From: Nitrososphaeraceae archaeon | GTDB lineage: Archaea > Thermoproteota > Nitrososphaeria > Nitrososphaerales > Nitrososphaeraceae | Direction: 5' to 3' | Length of the DNA stretch: 32,000 nucleotides | Assembly (NCBI GenBank): GCA_035643635.1 | Contig: DASQQB010000139.1 | Span: 54,865 to 86,864 of the forward strand | Part shown: one piece after another, positions 5,533-29,394 of the stretch | Numbering within the stretch: position 1 is the stretch's first letter | Layout of the letters: every line of letters begins with the position of its first letter | Translations under genes and position numbers: made by a program | The notes under the pieces: model-generated | Databases searched by the model: none | Seen by the model: only the letters and a program-made list of their open reading frames with translations | What the model was told of the DNA's origin: nothing

Positions 5533-6504
5533 ATGGTGACAACAGCAGATGTCCAAGGAAACTTTGAAACAATAACCAATAATGGCTTAACTTGGATAGA
5601 TATACAAAATCCTACTCATAGCAAAATAGATATACTTGGACGGAAATATTTTTTTCATGAACTAAATCTAGAAGACTGTCTTTCAAAACGACAGATTCCT
5701 AAAATGGATAAATATGCTGATCATATCTTTGCTGTACTACATTTTCCTAGTATAGATAAGGAAAAAAGTACAACACTAAGGTTTAGCCAGTTGTCTATCT
5801 TCGCAGGAATGAATTATCTGGTTACAATACATCAAGGCGATCTTAAACCACTTGAAGAAATGTTTGAACTCTGTAAACACAGTGAGAAGTATAGGGCTGC
5901 ACAAATGGGAAAATCATCAGGATATCTTCTCCACAGCATAATAGATATGCTGGTAGATGATCTTCTTCACATATTGATGAAGGTGATTGGCAACCTAGAC
6001 GACATAGAAGACGCAGTGTTCGATGATAAGGTAGCAATTGTAAAAGAAATTTCGCTTCTTAGAAGAGAAATAACTGTGCTCAGGAGAATAGTCGTTCCTC
6101 TAAAAAGAATTGTAACAGAAATAACCAAGAATATACAGGGTTTTTCCGAAGAAGACCTCACACAATATTATGATGATGTAAAGGATCATATAGATAAAGT
6201 ATTAGAAGAATTAGATGTCGCTCACGAAACAATAGAGATCTATAAGGACACAGATTTTATGCTCAATACAGAAAAAACTAATCAGACTCTTTCTATTCTT
6301 ACAATACTTTTCACGCTTTCAATTCCCGCTACAGTAATAGGCGCTTTTTATGGGATGAATGTAAATTTGCCTGGAGGAATAATACGGCCTTGGACATTCC
6401 TTGGTCCATATACTACCTTAATAATTATACTTATAATTTCTACAGTCCCTGCATTGTTGATGATTTGGTACTTTCGTAGACTTAGATGGATGGGGGTTAC
6501 TTAA
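5533..6504 (+). CDS. corA: CorA-family Mg2+/Co2+ transporter
   Basis: The signature 'YGMNV' (GMN motif) lies between two C-terminal TM helices. The long N-terminal cytoplasmic domain has 'LTWIDIQNPT'. The length is 323 aa. Confidence 0.93.
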   Translation: MVTTADVQGNFETITNNGLTWIDIQNPTHSKIDILGRKYFFHELNLEDCLSKRQIPKMDKYADHIFAVLHFPSIDKEKSTTLRFSQLSIFAGMNYLVTIHQGDLKPLEEMFELCKHSEKYRAAQMGKSSGYLLHSIIDMLVDDLLHILMKVIGNLDDIEDAVFDDKVAIVKEISLLRREITVLRRIVVPLKRIVTEITKNIQGFSEEDLTQYYDDVKDHIDKVLEELDVAHETIEIYKDTDFMLNTEKTNQTLSILTILFTLSIPATVIGAFYGMNVNLPGGIIRPWTFLGPYTTLIIILIISTVPALLMIWYFRRLRWMGVT

Positions 6505-6595
6505 TAAGCTAATTAATAAGCTGGTAATGGTTATCTAATTCCTATCATCAAAAATTCCAAATATTAATTAAAGGTCAAAATAAAAAGCATATCTA

Positions 6596-6994
6596 ATGCA
6601 CAACCCAGAAATGGTTCCTAGATGGATAGTAGAATCTGATCCATCTTGGGAGAGATCAGTTGATTCTAATCTTGGTATGCTAAGATGGTGTAAAAAAGGT
6701 ACAAGTCTACGAGCGGTATGCTCTCCTACCAGTATGTTTTGTACCTTAATAGATGATAATCATGAAAATAGTAACGATGGTAATGATACTGGATTATATG
6801 ATCGCAGGACTCTGGGCATGAAGTCGTCATCATCAGAACAATTCGGAATAAATGTACCTCAAACAGTAGCATCAGAGATTACTAAATATCTATCGAGTAG
6901 GTACTTGAATCCGATGAATAGCAGTTTGATAGATCATTTGAATAATATGAACACACCATACCATAGTTTTCTATACCGTAAATTGATTAGGTAG
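6596..6994 (+). CDS. Hypothetical ORF (132 aa), doubtful
   Basis: It is the only long ORF in the CorA/SBP spacer. Its Ser/Asn-rich composition looks non-globular, and I recognise no motif. Confidence 0.25.
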   Translation: MHNPEMVPRWIVESDPSWERSVDSNLGMLRWCKKGTSLRAVCSPTSMFCTLIDDNHENSNDGNDTGLYDRRTLGMKSSSSEQFGINVPQTVASEITKYLSSRYLNPMNSSLIDHLNNMNTPYHSFLYRKLIR

Positions 6995-7016: not shown

Positions 7017-9410
7017 TTGCAAAAAAATTTTTTTTTATTCTTATTACTAAGCTCTTTATTACTTATTCCACTGGTTTTTAGTACTTCTAGCGATGCCTAT
7101 CTTGGGATAGAACCAAAAGGGGCATATGTTGATAAAATACGATTTATTCAATATCTCGACGAGAATGTCGCATTGCAACAAGTAAAAGCAGGAAATCTTG
7201 ACACATACTTTTATAGAATTCCGTTGGAAGTGGTTTCTGATGTAAAGACTAATCCTAGTTTAAAGATTTACGAAAGAACAGCAGGATCGATTGGAATATT
7301 ATTAAATCCTGCTCCTACAAAAAATCCTAACACAATTAATCCTTTCCAATTCAGGCAAGTCCGGTATGCGTTGAACTATCTGATAAATCGCGATTTTATT
7401 GTTGATGAAGTTTTAAAGGGTTATGGGACCCCAATGATCGATCCCTTTGGCATTTATTCTCCAGAATATCTAAATGTTATAGATACTGTAGAATCCTTTA
7501 GTTTTAGATACAATCCACAACTTGCTGAAAAATTGATCTCAGATGCGTTGCTTCATGCAGGGGCCTCTAAAATTGCTGGAAAATGGATGTTCAAGGGGCA
7601 TACTATCACGGTTAAGGTACTGATCAGAAGTGACGATGCCCAAAGACAATCAGTTGGCGAATTGGTTTCGTCTGAACTAGAAAAAATAGGTATAACAATT
7701 GAAAAAAGCTTTGGAGATCTAAATAAAGCGAATTCTATTGTGTATGGATCTGATCCTCAGGACTTTCAGTGGCAGATTTACACTGAAGGCTATGCTGGCA
7801 CTTCTGCATTTGTAAAATATAATCCAATAATAATTTCACAGATGTATGCGCCTTATTTTGGTAATATGCCTGGCGGTCAAAATCCTTCTTTTTGGCATTA
7901 TCAAAACACAACATTAGATAATCTTGCACAGAGAATACAATTTTCAAACTTTACTTCTGAGGAAGCTAGAAATACTCTAGTAAGAGATGCAACAAAGTAT
8001 GGAATTCAACAGTCCGTCAGGATTTTTCTTGCCTCAAATACAGTTCCATATGTTGCATCATCTGCCTTAAGGGGGTTAATTAATGACTTTGGTGCAGGCA
8101 TTACAAGTAAATTATCCCTTATTAATGCGCAAGCTCCAAAAAATGTGTCCATGGATATTGGTGTAAAACAAATCTACCAAGGAGCATGGAATAATGTAGC
8201 TGGATGTAAGGACGAATACTGCACAAATATATACGGAGCCGTCTCGGATGGAGCAACATTCAGAAATCCCTACACTGGTGATGTGATTCCGATGAGAGAG
8301 CAATGGATTGACATTTCGACTAATGGTCCAAATGGCAGAATAAGAGTTCCAACTGATGTCAAAATCTGGGATTCTTCAACTCAGCAATGGAGATATGGTG
8401 GTGATAATACCACAGCAAAGAGCAAAGTGACTTATAAAATACTTTTTTCCAAATGGCATAATGGCATTCCGATGGATAAATCAGATTTAATTTATTCACA
8501 ATATTTCTTCTTTCAGTGGGGAACCAACAAAAGCCAAAGCGATCCGACATTTGATCCAGAGTTCACTTCACAAGCTGAAGTGGCGGTCCCACTGAATAAA
8601 GGATTTAAGTTTATTGCCAATGACGAAATAACATCTTATGTTGACTTTTGGCATTATGATAAAAAGGAAATAGCTGATTTTGCAGCAATATGGGCTGCTG
8701 AACCATGGGATATAACAGCAGCAACGGAAAGGCTAGTAACTGCAGGCAAACTTGCATATTCAAAAGGCCAAGCAACAGCCAAGAATGTTGATTGGCTGTC
8801 TTTATTAATAGCCGATCACGCCAATATGATAAGGACTGAACTACAAAAAATGAAAGACGAAAATTTTGTACCCCGTGCTCTAAAGAATATAGTTGGCATA
8901 GACGATGCAAAGAAACGGTATGATGCAAGCATAAACTGGATCTCTACTCACAAAAATGCTGTTATTGGCAACGGGCCATTTTATCTTGATAACTATAACC
9001 CATCAGGTGGAATAATTACACTTAAAGCATTCAGAGATCCTTCCTATCCGTTCAAACAGGGTCACTGGTCTGTATATGAGCATCCGAAATTAGCTAATAT
9101 AGATAAAATACAGGCTCCAAAATTTGTAAGACATGGTCAACCTATCAAAATACTAGTCAACGTTGACGTTAATGGACAGCCCAGTAATAACGTATCAATA
9201 AATTATTTTATATCCAATAAAGAAGGTAGGATCATAAGTCATGGAATAGCAGAGCCTGTTACGTCTGCTTTAGGAACGTTTGAAGTGAATCTTTTAGCAA
9301 ATGAAACGTCAAAGGTTTCTGTAGGTCCTAACGTTTTAAAATTATTTGCAAACAGCAAGGAGGCATTTAGACCAGATATCTCTACCAACACAATTTTGGG
9401 TATTCCATAA
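7017..9410 (+). CDS. ABC transporter substrate-binding protein, family 5 (peptide/nickel, OppA/DppA-like), with an extra C-terminal beta-rich domain
   Basis: TTG start, followed by the signal peptide MQKNFFLFLLLSSLLLIPLVFSTSS. Family-5 SBP blocks are present (YFYRIP..., FRQVRYALNYLINRDFIVDEVLKGYG, GNGPFYLDNYNP). It is followed by cognate permeases. Confidence 0.88.
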   Translation: MQKNFFLFLLLSSLLLIPLVFSTSSDAYLGIEPKGAYVDKIRFIQYLDENVALQQVKAGNLDTYFYRIPLEVVSDVKTNPSLKIYERTAGSIGILLNPAPTKNPNTINPFQFRQVRYALNYLINRDFIVDEVLKGYGTPMIDPFGIYSPEYLNVIDTVESFSFRYNPQLAEKLISDALLHAGASKIAGKWMFKGHTITVKVLIRSDDAQRQSVGELVSSELEKIGITIEKSFGDLNKANSIVYGSDPQDFQWQIYTEGYAGTSAFVKYNPIIISQMYAPYFGNMPGGQNPSFWHYQNTTLDNLAQRIQFSNFTSEEARNTLVRDATKYGIQQSVRIFLASNTVPYVASSALRGLINDFGAGITSKLSLINAQAPKNVSMDIGVKQIYQGAWNNVAGCKDEYCTNIYGAVSDGATFRNPYTGDVIPMREQWIDISTNGPNGRIRVPTDVKIWDSSTQQWRYGGDNTTAKSKVTYKILFSKWHNGIPMDKSDLIYSQYFFFQWGTNKSQSDPTFDPEFTSQAEVAVPLNKGFKFIANDEITSYVDFWHYDKKEIADFAAIWAAEPWDITAATERLVTAGKLAYSKGQATAKNVDWLSLLIADHANMIRTELQKMKDENFVPRALKNIVGIDDAKKRYDASINWISTHKNAVIGNGPFYLDNYNPSGGIITLKAFRDPSYPFKQGHWSVYEHPKLANIDKIQAPKFVRHGQPIKILVNVDVNGQPSNNVSINYFISNKEGRIISHGIAEPVTSALGTFEVNLLANETSKVSVGPNVLKLFANSKEAFRPDISTNTILGIP

Positions 9411-13600: not shown

Positions 13601-15331
13601 ATGGTAGCTAGTGAAAAGTGGAATAGCCTTGAACATAAGGGCGTTGCATTTCCCCCAGAATATCAGCCCAGAGGTTTACATATAACCCTAGGGAAGGAGA
13701 GATTTGCTCTTAACCGAGACCAGGAAGAATTAGTATATGCATGGGCAAAGAAAAAAGATACACATTATATTCAGGACCCTATTTTTCAGGCGAACTTTCT
13801 AAACGACTTTAAAAAATTACTACCAATAAGGTTTCAAGATATTAGGGATATTAGAGATGTTGATTTTACTGAAGCTTTTCAACTAGTAAATGAGGAAAAG
13901 AAAATAAAAGAGGTAGAATTGGAAAGAATTCGTAATCTTCCGCGTGATGAAAAAAAGAAAATCTCCTTGGCAAAAAAGGCAGAACGTGAAAGGCTCAAAG
14001 ACACCTATGGTAAGGCTTTTGTAGATGGTATTGAGGTAGATATTGCAAATTGGTTGGTTGAACCACCTGGTCTATTTATGGGTAGAGGCCAACATCCTTT
14101 AAGAGGAAAATGGAAACCTCGAGTGAGGCCTATCGACATTACTCTAAACTTAGGAGAAAACGCCCCAGTTCCGGAAGGGACATGGCAAAATGTCGTTCAC
14201 GATCACTCCTCAACATGGCTAGCAACTTGGTTAGAGAAACTGACGGCAAAAAGAAAATATGTATGGCTGCACGATTCTGCGGCTCTTCGTCAAAATAGCG
14301 ATAAAGAAAAATACGATAAGGCGGATAAACTTGGCAAACATATCACTAAAGTTGAAAAAGAAATTATAAAAAGGATGCTTAACTCTAATGATATTAATCA
14401 AAAGAAAATTGCGACAGTTTGCTACCTGATATTCAAACTAGCGATGCGTGTAGGAGATGAAAAGGATCCGGAAGAGGCAGATACAGTAGGAGCTTCGACT
14501 TTACGCGTAGAACACATAAAATTTCCACGTATTAGCGATAAGCAGTTTATAGAGTTTAATTTTCTGGGAAAAGATAGCGTTCCATGGCAAAAGACGATAG
14601 AAGTTAATTCGGAAGATGTTATGGGACTCTGTAAGAATCTAGAGTTATTTATGAATGGAAAAGAAAAGTCAGACGAAGTTTTTGATGGCATTACATCTAA
14701 CAAAGTAAATGCTTTTTTGCGTAGCATCGACCGAAAAAATGTACCTGGATTAACAGCGAAAGTTTTTAGAACATACATTACTACTAATATAGTTAAAGAA
14801 TCTCTTATGAATCCGCCTATGAAAGTTAACAAGAGTTCTTCTGAGTCAAAAAAAATCTATGTGGCAAAAATGGCGAATCTGAAAGCTGCAATTACCTGTA
14901 ATCACAAAAAGGGTATTGATCCAAAAAACCCTGCAAGCAAGTTGTCATTGGAAAAATTTGAAGGTTCCATAACAAAAAAGAAAGAGATAATTAAGAACTT
15001 GAAGGAAGATATGAAGACAAAAAAATGGAAAACAGAATCTCAAAGAGTTAAATTATATCAAAGGCTGGAAAAAATTGAACTGCAACTCAAGTTACAGAAA
15101 GAAACACATGATTATAATCTTGGAACATCCCTTAAAAACTATATAGACCCGCGTATCATGATGGGCTGGCTGAACTATGTAAATTTGGATATTAAAAAGA
15201 TCTACACTTCAAACTTGCAACGTAAATTTAAATGGGTACAAGATTATTATAATTCTCAGGATTTAAGGAGGTTTTATTCCAGTTACGAAAAAGGTCGCCA
15301 AGCGGTGACAACTGTAGAGGAAGAAAGCTGA
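13601..15331 (+). CDS. DNA topoisomerase IB (eukaryote-type)
   Basis: Near-identical blocks to eukaryotic Top1: 'VEPPGLFMGRGQHPLRGKWKPRV', 'ADTVGASTLRVEHI', 'FLGKDSV', 'LTAKVFRTY', 'CNH', and the active-site Tyr context 'LGTSLKNYIDPRI'. Confidence 0.95.
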   Translation: MVASEKWNSLEHKGVAFPPEYQPRGLHITLGKERFALNRDQEELVYAWAKKKDTHYIQDPIFQANFLNDFKKLLPIRFQDIRDIRDVDFTEAFQLVNEEKKIKEVELERIRNLPRDEKKKISLAKKAERERLKDTYGKAFVDGIEVDIANWLVEPPGLFMGRGQHPLRGKWKPRVRPIDITLNLGENAPVPEGTWQNVVHDHSSTWLATWLEKLTAKRKYVWLHDSAALRQNSDKEKYDKADKLGKHITKVEKEIIKRMLNSNDINQKKIATVCYLIFKLAMRVGDEKDPEEADTVGASTLRVEHIKFPRISDKQFIEFNFLGKDSVPWQKTIEVNSEDVMGLCKNLELFMNGKEKSDEVFDGITSNKVNAFLRSIDRKNVPGLTAKVFRTYITTNIVKESLMNPPMKVNKSSSESKKIYVAKMANLKAAITCNHKKGIDPKNPASKLSLEKFEGSITKKKEIIKNLKEDMKTKKWKTESQRVKLYQRLEKIELQLKLQKETHDYNLGTSLKNYIDPRIMMGWLNYVNLDIKKIYTSNLQRKFKWVQDYYNSQDLRRFYSSYEKGRQAVTTVEEES

Positions 15332-15509: not shown

Positions 15510-15584
15510 GCCGGGGTAGCTCAGCCTGGTTAGAGCGTTCGACTCATAATCGAAAGGTCGCGGGCTCAAATCCCGCCTCCGGCA
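15510..15584 (+). tRNA. tRNA with CAU anticodon (elongator Met, or Ile2 if C34 is modified)
   Basis: Manual cloverleaf: acceptor GCCGGGG/CTCCGGC, D arm GCTC-AGCCTGGTTA-GAGC, anticodon arm TTCGA-CTCATAA-TCGAA (CAT at 15545..15547), variable AGGTC, T arm GCGGG-CTCAAAT-CCCGC, discriminator A. No encoded CCA and no intron. The G1:C72 pair argues against an initiator. Confidence 0.9.
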
Positions 15585-15755
15585 CATAGATATTATTATA
15601 TTGGAACTTGATTCTTGGCATTATCCAAAAATGCGCTGTTGATACGAGTCCTATTTACCCAGCATATGACATTACACACGGGCATCTTCCTGATATCTTT
15701 GTCCTACAAGTCTAAGTATCGATTCATTTATTAACATTCTTTTAGTCGTAGCACT

Positions 15756-26101: not shown

Positions 26102-26624
26102 TTTATTGGAATTGGAGATAATATTCTAATTAGTTTGCAAATAAGAATGCATATCAAGTATCAACTTCGAGCTATAAGATGTTGATATTAAAACTAGCAA
26201 TATCAGCGTCAGTTCTACAATAGACCTAGTTGAATAATTCTCTCTTTTCAGTAGATTGTTCTCATGAGGAATTGATGAGAAGCAAATATTGTGACTTAGC
26301 AGGCTTTTTAATTTACGGTAAACTTTATGTGACCTGTGGAAATGTAGGATCAAGAAAGTAGACGTATGATTTCTGTACGTTGGTATATGATGAACATGTA
26401 CATCCCATGTTAAGTTGTAAAATTACAATATGTCTGGATAACGAGTAGTTTTCCAGTCAGGATTGCAAATTATAGGCTATGTACTTCGTAGTATTCATAA
26501 ACAGACGAGATTCTTAATAGTTTAATTTGGGAACATATACAACAAAGGGCAATTTATTTAGAACTCATTTTCATATAGATGTACAGACTTATTAACCACG
26601 GGAGATGGGTCATTAGATTAGACT

Positions 26625-28499
26625 TTGTTAAAGTATTATGTTGGTTGTGCTGATTGGCGGTATAGTGCATGGAAAGATGAATTCTATCCTAATATGATGG
26701 ATCAGAAAGATTATCTGACATATTATTCCAAAGTTTTTGATTTTGTAGAAATTAATTTGGATAGGAGCAATGGTCATAATAATAAAAATGGAAGCTATTC
26801 TGTTCCAAATAATGAAATAATACAAAAGTGGTCAAATGAAATACCAGATAATTTTCGCTTTACTATCGAGTTACCTGGTTCTATTATTGACCAAATAGAC
26901 AAGCTTGGAGATTATTTGGAAGAATTTGCTCCGTTAGAAGAAAAGATACTTGCTGTGGTGGTTCATCAGAAAAATTCGACCCTAGCCAACGGTAGGGAAT
27001 GGCTTAATGGTCTCTTGGATATATGCATGTATCATGGATATTCAGTAGCTTTGGAATTTGACCATTATTCTTGGTATCAAGATTTAACATACCATATCTT
27101 AAAAAAATACAAAGCCGCATTAATTTGGTCTAGTAAGAGTCGTCACGCTGTAGTTACTGGTGATTTTCTATATCTTAGAATACGTGAAAATGAAAGAAGA
27201 TGGATTAATAAGATCAAGCGTGAGGATGATTATAATAAAAGCAATATACAACAAGAAGGTATTAAATTTGCAATTATTGTAGTAGATAATCCTTCAACAG
27301 TCAATAGAGTTTTACGACTATTGGATTTGCCAGAAAGAAAATATGGTGATAATAAGTGGACAGGCAAGGTTATAATGTGTGTTGATCTGAATGCATTCTT
27401 TCCTTCTTGTGAAGAGCTTCGGGACACATCACTGGTAGGAAATCCACATGCAGTAATTATGACTGATCAAGAGAAAGGCAAGATAACTAAAGGTGCAGTA
27501 GCTTCATGTTCTTATGAAGCAAGAAAATATGGCGTCAGATCGGCTATGTCACTTCTAAAAGCAGAAGAATTATGTCCTAATCTTATCCTAAACCCAGTTG
27601 ACATACCATACTATAGACAGATTTCTGATAAAGTTATGAGAATTTTGGAAGAATATGCAGATGTTTTAGAGCAATCTAGCATAGATGAAGCATATCTAGA
27701 TTGCACTAATAAAATTAGATCTAATCCACTTATTACTATCGAAACATACACCGAACAGATCAAAAAATCAATTAAAGAACAATGTAGACTTTTAACTTCC
27801 ATAGGAGTAGCCAATACGAAATCTGCTGCAAAAATTGCATCTGACTATCAAAAACCTGACGGTCTTACGGTCGTTTATCCGCATAAATTACAAAGCTTTT
27901 TAGAGCCACTTGAGGTGGGAAGGATAGCAGGTGTTGGTGTCAAAACTCAACAGGTCTTGAAAGGGAACCTTGGAATTGAAACTATAGGTCAGCTTTCAAA
28001 ATGCGATGTTCAGAAATTGATAGATAAGTTTGGCAAAAGGAATGGTCTTTGGATGTGGCAAGTAGCAAATGGTCTAGATACGGATGATGCAGTCATTCCC
28101 AGAGAAGACAACATCTCCATAAGTTCTGAGCAAACATTGAACAGGCATACTAGAGATAGAGAGAAGATATTAAAATATGTAAATGAATTAGTAGACGAAG
28201 TCTATGATAGGGTCAGTGGGAAGGGTTATGAATTTAGAACCGTAGGATTGAAATTAGTCAAATCTGATTTTTCAGTTGAAACAAGGGAGACTTCCTATTC
28301 AAATTATCAGAGTGCAAAAGAAAGTATTGCAAGTGTTGTTGAAGGTTTATTAAGTAAATTTTCCTTTTTGTCTTCTGAATCTAACAACTACGGTGATACC
28401 ACATTGACTGTCCGAAAAGTAGGAGTAAAGTTGTCAAACTTAATTAGTATAGAAAAGAAAAAGCCGCCACAACAAAAGACATTAATGGATTATATTTAA
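26625..28499 (+). CDS. DUF72 (YecE/UPF0759) domain fused to a Y-family DNA polymerase IV (Dpo4/DinB)
   Basis: Residues 1 to ~235 carry the DUF72 blocks: 'GCADWRYSAWKDEFYP', 'FDFVEIN', 'FRFTIE', 'ALEFDHYSW', 'FLYLRI', 'AIIVVDN...RLLDL'. Residues 248-624 carry the polymerase blocks: 'VDLNAFFPSCEE', 'ASCSYEARKYGVRSAM', 'SIDEAYLD', 'GVANTKSAAKIASDYQKPDG'. It is one uninterrupted ORF with a TTG start directly after an in-frame TAG. Confidence 0.88.
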   Translation: MLKYYVGCADWRYSAWKDEFYPNMMDQKDYLTYYSKVFDFVEINLDRSNGHNNKNGSYSVPNNEIIQKWSNEIPDNFRFTIELPGSIIDQIDKLGDYLEEFAPLEEKILAVVVHQKNSTLANGREWLNGLLDICMYHGYSVALEFDHYSWYQDLTYHILKKYKAALIWSSKSRHAVVTGDFLYLRIRENERRWINKIKREDDYNKSNIQQEGIKFAIIVVDNPSTVNRVLRLLDLPERKYGDNKWTGKVIMCVDLNAFFPSCEELRDTSLVGNPHAVIMTDQEKGKITKGAVASCSYEARKYGVRSAMSLLKAEELCPNLILNPVDIPYYRQISDKVMRILEEYADVLEQSSIDEAYLDCTNKIRSNPLITIETYTEQIKKSIKEQCRLLTSIGVANTKSAAKIASDYQKPDGLTVVYPHKLQSFLEPLEVGRIAGVGVKTQQVLKGNLGIETIGQLSKCDVQKLIDKFGKRNGLWMWQVANGLDTDDAVIPREDNISISSEQTLNRHTRDREKILKYVNELVDEVYDRVSGKGYEFRTVGLKLVKSDFSVETRETSYSNYQSAKESIASVVEGLLSKFSFLSSESNNYGDTTLTVRKVGVKLSNLISIEKKKPPQQKTLMDYI

Positions 28500-28800: not shown

Positions 28801-29394
28801 TTGTTTACCATGAACAAGAAACAGAGAACAAGCTATTTACTGGGATTATCTAGCATTAGTTTGGCACTAGCATTTATGGTCTTGCCAAACAATAATGCAT
28901 TAGCCCAGAATAACAATGGAATAGGTAGAAACATGCCATCCATGACAACAACGGCTCTAGGTAGTAACAGCAAACAAACTCCTTGGAATCCGCTTTCTAT
29001 GAGCAGTTCTGAAAATTGGACAGGTTCTATATCACTGTTAAGCCCTATTATAGATGCATACAAGTCAAAGATCCATACCACGCTCAATGATGCTATTACA
29101 AGTGCAAAAAATGTTGTAGGAGGTTCAAATTCTTCAGCTGTTGCCGCATTTATACATCCACAAAGAGGGTTCTTGGTGTATAATGTATTCGTTCTTGACT
29201 CCAGTAACAATATTCATAGAGTAATTATAGATCCAGGAAATGGAAGGGTATTGTCTAACCTAGGACTATCTATGCCGGATATGATGAGTATGATGCATCC
29301 CTCTATGGGAATGGGTGGGATGATGGATAATGGCGGTGGGATGATGGATAATGGCGGTAGGATGATGGGTTCCTTTAATGGTCCGTGGCATTAA
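28801..29394 (+). CDS. Secreted PepSY-domain protein with a Met/Gly-rich C-terminal tail
   Basis: Signal peptide 'LLGLSSISLALAFMVLPNNNALAQ'. PepSY-like 'AAFIHPQRGFLVYNVFVLDSSNNIHRVIIDPGNGRVLS'. Tail 'PDMMSMMHPSMGMGGMMDNGGGMMDNGGRMMG'. The start is TTG 28801 or ATG 28810. Confidence 0.7.
   Translation: MFTMNKKQRTSYLLGLSSISLALAFMVLPNNNALAQNNNGIGRNMPSMTTTALGSNSKQTPWNPLSMSSSENWTGSISLLSPIIDAYKSKIHTTLNDAITSAKNVVGGSNSSAVAAFIHPQRGFLVYNVFVLDSSNNIHRVIIDPGNGRVLSNLGLSMPDMMSMMHPSMGMGGMMDNGGGMMDNGGRMMGSFNGPWH
29314..29370 (+). repeat. In-frame 21-nt tandem repeat (2 full copies plus 1 partial) encoding GGMMDNG units
   Basis: ggtgggatgatggataatggc occurs twice exactly (29314..29334 and 29335..29355), followed by ggtaggatgatgggt. 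Confidence 0.9.

Follow-up and report, generated by a model that had tools for sequence, protein, structure and literature searches.

DUF72 is a large and widely distributed protein family (PMC3828134) for which three crystal structures are available and for which no function has been established experimentally in the literature that we searched. Endonuclease-IV-like DNA binding has been predicted by modelling for the Thermotoga protein Tm1631 (1VPQ; PMC3828134, PMC4939058), and a 2025 paper reported that DUF72 genes are enriched beside archaeal and bacterial PolB2 translesion operons and called the DUF72 fold closely related to UVDE (PMC11791011). Here we describe a gene that joins a DUF72-like TIM barrel to a Y-family DNA polymerase, located in a 32,000-nucleotide stretch of a Nitrososphaeraceae archaeon genome (contig DASQQB010000139.1, positions 54,865 to 86,864 of the forward strand), which in its full length is referred to below as the window. 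Y-family polymerases are a well-understood group and, to our knowledge, no characterised member carries a TIM-barrel domain. The original prediction for this locus, made from the letters of the window, had proposed an end-to-end fusion of the two domains in a 624-codon open reading frame (ORF), had described DUF72 as a family with no established function, and had pointed to an endonuclease-IV-like DNA-binding proposal for a Thermotoga member. Both statements are borne out by the literature, and the ORF and its Pfam domains agree with the proposed architecture.

As far as we found, the fusion is visible in databases, where JGI and NCBI label the fused clusters simply 'DNA polymerase IV', and is apparently undescribed in the literature. 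Our literature searches returned no description of it and none of DUF72 or YecE function; for E. coli yecE they returned almost only papers on Shiga-toxin-producing E. coli and Stx phages, and the genome papers found for ammonia-oxidising archaea mention 'PolY' with no remark on its architecture. We favour, with moderate confidence, the reading that the gene encodes one polypeptide, a PCNA-tethered Y-family polymerase carrying an accessory barrel that derives from DUF72, has diverged and has probably lost the ancestral chemistry.

The fusion is genuine and conserved

A key finding from our analysis is that the fusion is genuine, runs end to end and is evolutionarily conserved. Profile hidden Markov model searches of the two halves, which had been suggested with the original prediction, matched DUF72 (PF01904) at residues 21-206 (E 5.2e-24; 86 bits against a cutoff of 25.3; profile positions 1-176 of 217) and IMS (PF00817) at residues 253-407 (E 1.9e-41; 141.8 bits against a cutoff of 23.2). 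A survey of other genomes, suggested at the same time, found that the fusion recurs in Nitrososphaeraceae, and at least 120 protein clusters from ENA, JGI, NCBI and Logan share the architecture, at 56-88% identity and 81-100% (mostly 100%) coverage, with lengths of 502-705 amino acids (aa). Among the best 120 clusters, PF01904 and PF00817 are both present in 120/120 and PF11799 in 119/120, the sole cluster that lacks it being a truncated 529-aa entry. Deeper representatives at 50% identity (P0127, P0132, P0145 and P0135) likewise combine DUF72 with IMS. When one genome per GTDB species was scanned, fused genes were found in metagenome-assembled genomes (MAGs) labelled Nitrososphaeraceae, Nitrososphaera sp. 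and Ca. Nitrosocosmicus sp. (loci L002-L009, L018 and L019), and the GC content of the fused loci spans 26% to 56%. Two barrels of the fused type that seemed to stand alone (P0121 and P0126) break off in the linker and are apparently fragments from contig ends.

Two genes could also be joined into one frame by the loss of a stop codon, by a frameshift or by chimeric assembly, and the original prediction had singled out a lost stop at the junction as a point to be checked. This explanation is effectively refuted. An independent, non-identical assembly (L001), in which the neighbouring genes are 95-99% identical to those of the window, encodes the identical, uninterrupted fusion protein, and alignments of homologues are colinear across a junction that is conserved in more than 120 clusters from the four data sources. 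Nothing was found in favour of an artefact, and a difference in a T-run 5' of the start (TTT or TT, see below) leaves the junction unaffected.

Of 50 loci beyond L031, nearly all of them bacterial dinB genes, none had a DUF72 profile match in the fetched flanks (0/50), on which ground a general dinB-DUF72 adjacency in bacteria was rejected, and bathyarchaeial and bacterial relatives consist of the polymerase only.

The N terminus of the protein is well constrained. Because a TAG lies in frame at 26619-26621, the TTG at 26625 is the sole start that retains the N-terminal block kept in the alignment of homologues (K3, Y4, G7, C8, W11, F20 and P22). The same position is occupied by ATG (MKYY...) in several homologues, and many others are called from a non-ATG codon. 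The T-run just 5' of the start (26579-26627 in the window; about 3001-3050 in L082 and about 480-530 in L084) reads GAC-TTT-G in the window, L001 and L083, and GAC-TTG in L082 and L084. The first reading places ATG 26579 out of frame and TAG 26619 in frame; the second extends the frame to an ATG 15 codons upstream, and gene callers then give a protein of 639 aa. These 15 upstream 'codons' are nearly identical between relatives in DNA, and the stretch is probably a conserved 5' region and not coding.

The polymerase half

Judged by its sequence, the C-terminal part of 374 residues is a complete and presumably active Y-family polymerase. It falls in the DinB/Dpo4 branch, with the core, the helix-hairpin-helix (HhH) thumb, the little finger, the catalytic carboxylates and the aromatic gate all present; IMS_C scores 61.4 bits (cutoff 20.7), the thumb profile PF21704 scores 34.1 bits (cutoff 27), and the NCBIfam DNA polymerase IV model PRK02406 was passed at 259.6 bits against a cutoff of 256. 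As had been proposed, this half aligns from the start of stand-alone Dpo4/DinB, its match beginning at residue 2 of the solved Dbh and Dpo4 chains in the PDB (E 1e-45 to 4e-53). The catalytic Asp, the Asp-Glu pair and the Phe gate named in the original prediction are seen as D254, D354-E355 and F259; the three carboxylates are invariant in 56 sequences, and F259 stands at the steric-gate position. We take their Dpo4 counterparts to be the catalytic carboxylates D7, D105 and E106 and the steric gate Y12. Two residues after the first catalytic Asp, the window has Asn256 (27390-27392) in the motif D-L-N-A-F-F, a position that is Asn or Asp in the motif of a 17-sequence alignment.

The protein ends in QKTLMDYI, a C-terminal motif of the PCNA-interacting protein (PIP) box type Qxx[LIM]xx[FY][FYLI]. 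Within it, Q617 is invariant and T619 is kept in at least 90% of 56 sequences, and L620 and Y623 are kept in at least 90% of the 17-sequence set. From this motif we infer that the tail would tether the polymerase to PCNA.

The barrel keeps its fold and has a remodelled face

In addition to its Pfam match, the N-terminal half matches TM1631 by sequence (E 1.9e-10), and an AlphaFold2 (AF2) model of it has eight beta/alpha units, a predicted local distance difference test (pLDDT) value of 82 and a predicted template modelling (pTM) score of 0.83. The best Foldseek matches are two DUF72 crystal structures, 1vpq (E 2.4e-11) and 1vpy (E 1.4e-10), with TM values of 0.61-0.65, and these are followed by xylose-isomerase-like TIM barrels (4xsl, E 9e-6), a fold group that presumably also includes EndoIV. 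The original description of a complete DUF72 domain thus holds for the predicted eight units; it does not hold for the C-terminal YFNN..A..NA motif, which is not recognisably kept. In a search of 1.84 billion representatives, no stand-alone DUF72 protein came closer than 35-38% identity, and Pfam DUF72 scores are 38-97 bits for fused barrels against 126-212 bits for stand-alone proteins. In the loop at residues 46-60, an insert varies in length by roughly 5-60 aa among homologues, and pLDDT falls below 50 at residues 48-57.

The residues of the barrel were compared among 89-90 stand-alone DUF72 representatives, 108 fused barrels from close relatives and 15 from deep lineages. The fold core is retained in the fused proteins (G7, W11, W16, FYP, W69, F77, F79, P84, K107, F145, S149, W150, T178 and Y183). 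Residues counted as lost are each 80-97% conserved in stand-alone DUF72. H89 and Q114, conserved in 94-97% of stand-alone proteins, occur in 0% of fused ones; R146, with the same stand-alone conservation, is present in 3% and kept only in L008; the Phe/Tyr positions of the STFY motif are retained in 0-6%, with a variable, low-confidence loop instead; and G188 and N222 are mostly lost (N222 is kept in 36%). A second group, E42, K82, E144, H147 and R185, is kept in 61-88% of all fused proteins, and deep fused lineages show A/H, R/S/Q/I/T, D/Q/R or H/D/S/C at these positions, with A or H at 42 and R, S, Q, I or T at 82. The polar set of DUF72 (E42, N/D44, STFY, K82, T-H89, Q114, E144, R146, H147, R185 and NN221-222) is incomplete in the window barrel, which keeps E42, E144, H147 and R185.

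Two substitutions that the original prediction had raised as caveats, 'FRFTIE' (K82E) and 'EFDH' (R146D), are both real. In the alignments, R146D/N is typical of close fused relatives and K82E is private to the window's organism: among 108 fused barrels, position 82 is K in 105, N in 2 and E in 1 (Lys in 97%, and in 98% of stand-alone proteins), the lone Glu belonging to the window protein, to which P0001 is identical. The window barrel is also one of two among the 108 with Asn44, and Ala replaces Ser9.

In the AF2 model, the remodelled positions map to the C-terminal ends of strands beta2-beta5, beta7 and beta8. Such strand ends are the usual catalytic face of TIM barrels. The remodelled positions also overlap the residue list of the Tm1631-DNA model (S7, E42, N44, Y47/Y48, K72, H79, Q114, E143-R145, R191 and N239; PMC3828134). 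The charge of the domain has shifted as well, with a median isoelectric point (pI) of 6.65 for fused barrels against 8.93 for stand-alone DUF72, and 5.9 for the window barrel.

Sequence comparison also identifies the fused barrel as a diverged paralogue of canonical DUF72. In one Nitrososphaeraceae lineage, the fusion is followed at a distance of 2.7 kb by a stand-alone DUF72 gene of canonical type (L008, 5764-6639), downstream of it. The same gene is found in L085, L086 and L087 (at 8001-8876 or 5771-6646), the lineage having been recovered from several independent samples. Two genes separate the fusion from the canonical copy, one PNPOx-like and the other unannotated (438 aa), and the canonical copy carries the motifs DSIFY, ITHV, FQLAPS, EFRHPSW, RLHGRN and YFNNH. 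This adjacency is not general. Canonical stand-alone genes are widespread in related ammonia-oxidising archaea, with at least 120 clusters of this type, at 61-69% identity, that derive from sources bearing the name Nitrososphaeraceae or Ca. Nitrosopolaris.

In comparisons with four close relatives, the barrel has a ratio of nonsynonymous to synonymous substitution rates (dN/dS) of 0.25-0.46 and the polymerase one of 0.08-0.21. Purifying selection acts on the barrel as well, but it is more relaxed there, and the barrel changes at about double the rate of the polymerase half. One relative is a mosaic: L083 (579-2435), compared with 26625-28499 of the window, has a barrel at 57% identity (dS 0.79) and a polymerase at 91% (dS 0.29), a pattern suggesting that lineages have recombined close to or at the boundary of the two domains.

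These results bear on whether the protein is a bifunctional repair enzyme, in which an active barrel would carry out UVDE/EndoIV-like incision, or handle apurinic/apyrimidinic (AP) sites or deoxyribose phosphate (dRP) groups, and hand its product to the polymerase. We consider this unlikely. Purifying selection on the barrel is in keeping with it, and in the window subclade E42, K82, E144, H147 and R185 are conserved together with new acidic residues at 44, 146 and 221; against this, H89, Q114, R146 and the Tyr motif are gone from essentially all fused proteins, those residues that are still conserved change in the deep fused lineages, and the window protein itself has K82E. Damaged DNA has been modelled into the groove of Tm1631 in published work, but the losses include several Tm1631 residues modelled as DNA or phosphate contacts (Y47/Y48, H79, Q114 and R145), and the net positive charge is lost. 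Likewise, xylose-isomerase-like barrels as the next-best Foldseek matches would suit such an enzyme, whereas neither UVDE nor EndoIV is in the Foldseek top 50, and no AP_endonuc_2 (PF01261) or UvdE Pfam match was obtained at E up to 1. The enrichment of DUF72 genes near PolB2 translesion operons points in its favour; the separate retention of canonical DUF72, and a barrel that is decayed, or absent within 1.8-4 kb upstream, in relatives retaining the polymerase, point the other way. Incision coupled to bypass, as the original prediction had envisaged it, is thus not indicated by the sequence.

Linker, internal methionine and loss of the barrel

Two linker residues, W245 and G247, show at least 90% conservation across 56 homologues, that of P236 and Y240 is confined to the 17-sequence set, and a W-x-G-[KR] remnant of the linker also precedes unfused polymerase genes. 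Of 110 homologues, 63 have M at position 251, 40 have L and 7 have F. The suggestion of a stand-alone polymerase isoform was sound in that the ATG at 27375 is real; the isoform is not a conserved feature, Met251 being lost in 47/110 (43%). The AT-rich stretch at 27334..27355, which the original prediction had noted upstream of this ATG, proved unremarkable, as 119 of 1854 ORF windows of the same size (6%) are equally or more AT-rich in this genome of 34% GC, and the stretch codes for the conserved linker. A conserved internal start or promoter is ruled out by the variation at Met251 and the ordinary AT content, and Met251 looks like a vestige of the ancestral start and is not a conserved second initiation site.

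Close relatives of the polymerase also occur in unfused form. Nine Nitrososphaerales loci (L010-L017 and L027) encode polymerases that score 491-575 bits on the fused-family profile in ORFs that lack DUF72, and no DUF72 was found within 1.8-4 kb upstream of them where enough sequence exists. In a rough neighbour-joining (NJ) tree, L016, L017 and L027 branch below all fused genes, and the remaining unfused genes, including L011 and L013-L015, are interspersed among fused ones. L012 (Nitrosocosmicus bin309) provides direct evidence of secondary barrel decay with the polymerase kept: at positions 1-480, directly upstream of an intact polymerase ORF, lies a barrel remnant that aligns to the C-terminal part of the barrel of fused relatives and contains one frameshift and several in-frame stops. 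The L012 polymerase starts near the Met251 equivalent, which suggests that this start can be reused after barrel loss.

One might then ask whether the barrel is a decaying relic, a slowly eroding leftover that stays in frame by chance upstream of a functional product of roughly 43 kDa translated from Met251. This explanation appears improbable to us. Its rate of evolution, about twice that of the polymerase, its variable low-complexity inserts and the K82E substitution unique to the window's genome would all fit erosion, but its dN/dS of 0.25-0.46 is well below 1, more than 120 clusters, and genomes with 26-56% GC, keep its 235-codon frame open, and many fold-core residues, together with W245 and G247 of the linker, are invariant or at least 90% conserved in 56 homologues. 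Met251 is present in the window and in 57% of homologues, and the polymerase of L012 starts near the equivalent Met after decay of the barrel; set against this, 43% of homologues have L or F at position 251, and there is nothing unusual about the AT-rich stretch.

Feature map and genomic context

The features of the fusion gene are collected in Table 1. In an all-against-all comparison of the ORFs that flank nine fused loci and eight unfused ones, no neighbour recurred, and conserved operon partners were rejected on that ground. The neighbours in the window are housekeeping genes (S3Ae, PF01877, RNase P p30-like, formyltransferase, NUDIX, Topo IB, CorA, Opp-type ABC and fumarase), and their synteny is common to close relatives only.

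Table 1. Features of the fusion gene in the window (positions are those of the window; residue numbers count from the TTG start)
Feature	Position	Strand	Basis
Whole fusion gene, 624 codons plus stop, TTG start	26625..28499	+	ORF call, Pfam
In-frame TAG, two codons 5' of TTG; sets the N terminus	26619..26621	+	
DUF72-like TIM barrel, aa 1-235	26625..27329	+	Pfam, TM1631 match, AF2, Foldseek
Variable loop, aa 46-60, in place of the canonical S-T-F-Y motif (Tm1631 Tyr47/Tyr48)	26760..26804	+	
GAG codon, Glu82, at a near-universal Lys position	26868..26870	+	
Conserved linker PERKYGDNKWTGKVI, aa 236-250	27330..27374	+	Alignments of homologues
In-frame ATG, Met251, where stand-alone Dpo4/DinB starts	27375..27377	+	
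Y-family palm/fingers (IMS), aa 253-407, with D254, F259, D354-E355	27381..27845	+	Pfam
Thumb / helix-hairpin-helix, aa 431-484	27915..28076	+	PF21704 E 3.2e-08, PF21999 E 4.9e-06
Little finger (IMS_C), aa 498-616	28116..28472	+	PF11799 E 1.3e-16
PIP-box-like motif QKTLMDYI, aa 617-624, C-terminal	28473..28496	+	Qxx[LM]xx[FY]x pattern

Several other observations were made in the surrounding sequence. An ORF of 197 aa at 28801-29394 (+), conserved in L001, has no Pfam match, a hydrophobic N-terminal segment and a Met/Gly-rich C-terminal tail, MMSMMHPSMGMGGMMDNGGGMMDNGGRMMG, that resembles Met-rich metal (Cu) binding motifs. A eukaryote-type topoisomerase IB (Topoisom_I_N, Topoisom_I and Topo_C_assoc) is encoded at 13601-15331 (+) and is followed by tRNA-Met at 15510-15585; this enzyme, the archaeal S3Ae and the GC content of 34% agree with an origin of the window in Nitrososphaeria, within Nitrososphaeraceae. 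In L001 (ENA contig_26447), the genes for S3Ae, NUDIX, a Cu-oxidase and a 254-aa ORF are each split in two, which suggests indel errors, and the fusion gene is intact.

Discussion

The fusion would represent a translesion polymerase of two modules that is specific to the Nitrososphaeraceae lineage of ammonia-oxidising soil archaea and is made as one polypeptide of roughly 72 kDa translated from TTG 26625. Most likely the fusion arose early in Nitrososphaeraceae, and the barrel would then have diverged from the canonical stand-alone DUF72. The N terminus of Y-family polymerases runs straight into the strand that bears the catalytic Asp. Residues of the catalytic face are replaced or variable and the net positive charge is lost, and therefore an accessory role seems most likely, be it the binding of a substrate or partner, or regulation, beside the polymerase N terminus. 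We infer that the barrel would be non-catalytic: it keeps its fold core and probably no longer performs the ancestral DUF72 chemistry, and it would be dispensable enough for loss or pseudogenisation in some lineages.

Several points weigh against this accessory-barrel reading. In the window subclade, E42 is kept in 100%, K82 in 97%, E144 in 96%, H147 in 96% and R185 in 95%, which places them among the columns of highest conservation, and new acidic residues are conserved at D44, D/N146 and D221, a sequence pattern that could mark a re-specialised, for example metal-dependent, site and not a dead one. The difference in retention between polar and non-polar conserved columns is not significant (Mann-Whitney p = 0.11); a clean 'pseudoenzyme' statistic was rejected on that ground, and we therefore claim concentrated remodelling and not wholesale loss. 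DUF72 has no experimentally known catalytic residues, so that a lost active site would be read from conservation and strand position only. The full-length AF2 model (pTM 0.45, linker pLDDT below 50) yields no confident inter-domain geometry. Finally, the NJ tree is crude and the MAGs are incomplete, and loss as opposed to paralogy of the unfused genes is settled for L012 only.

It is tempting to speculate, in view of the subclade pattern, that the barrel has been re-specialised into a functional module for lesion recognition or processing, perhaps with an acidic metal site formed by E42, D44, E144, D146, H147 and D221, although we would give this only a modest chance of being correct. If it were true, soil ammonia oxidisers would possess a self-contained repair polymerase that recognises or incises and then synthesises, and this, together with the PolB2 neighbourhoods, would offer the first experimentally tractable handle on how DUF72 acts on damaged DNA.

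The guilt by association for DUF72 argued in the original prediction stands insofar as the covalent link is conserved, and it is indirect for canonical DUF72 insofar as the fused copy has diverged; because that copy is remodelled, the function of canonical DUF72 cannot simply be read off the fusion. The fusion is thus a firm and testable lead for DUF72 biology, tempered by the atypical nature of the fused copy. Fused genes, unfused genes, a pseudogenised barrel and a canonical paralogue also occur within one archaeal family that has cultured members, which amounts to a natural experiment.

Comparison with known systems

The polymerase half shares with Dpo4, Dbh and DinB the palm-fingers, the HhH thumb, the little finger, the catalytic Asp and Asp-Glu, the aromatic gate and a C-terminal PCNA-type motif. 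It differs from them in the N-terminal TIM-barrel module of 250 residues and conserved linker that the fusion adds, and in Asn256, which stands where Dpo4 has Asp9 (DLNAFF against DFDYFY) and where Dpo4/DinB proteins carry a second Asp (D-F-D or D-M-D). The barrel shares its fold and Pfam family with the stand-alone DUF72 proteins (TM1631/1VPQ, EF0366/1VPY-1ZTV and E. coli YecE), and the motifs GxSGW, FYP, VE, W, FRF, E-F-x-H-x-SW and Y-x-R are common to both. Unlike these proteins, the fused barrel lacks the STFY/Tyr-Tyr motif, T-H, the Q of QLPP, the R of EFRH, HG and NN; it is also less basic, scores two- to five-fold lower against Pfam and is covalently joined to another domain.

Extra N-terminal elements placed directly before the strand with the catalytic Asp are found in other Y-family polymerases, namely the N-clasp of Pol kappa and the BRCT domain of Rev1. 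They offer a plausible analogy for an accessory role in binding DNA or a partner, although the N-clasp consists of about 75 helical residues of unrelated fold and the fusion has a whole TIM barrel. Encirclement of DNA by the fused barrel has no structural support in the full-length AF2 model. For the bifunctional alternative, the precedent is set by PolX-PHP and LigD, in which a hydrolase domain resembling a barrel is attached covalently to a polymerase of DNA repair. The nuclease domains of these enzymes keep their metal-binding catalytic residues, whereas the parental polar set of the fused barrel is partly replaced.

The conserved covalent link described here is independent evidence that ties the DUF72 lineage to the handling of DNA damage, and it adds to the signal from the PolB2 operons (PMC11791011), which connect DUF72 with translesion synthesis independently, through genome organisation. 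In those operons the link is one of gene neighbourhood and involves a B-family polymerase and presumably canonical DUF72, whereas in Nitrososphaeraceae it is covalent and joins a Y-family polymerase to a diverged DUF72.

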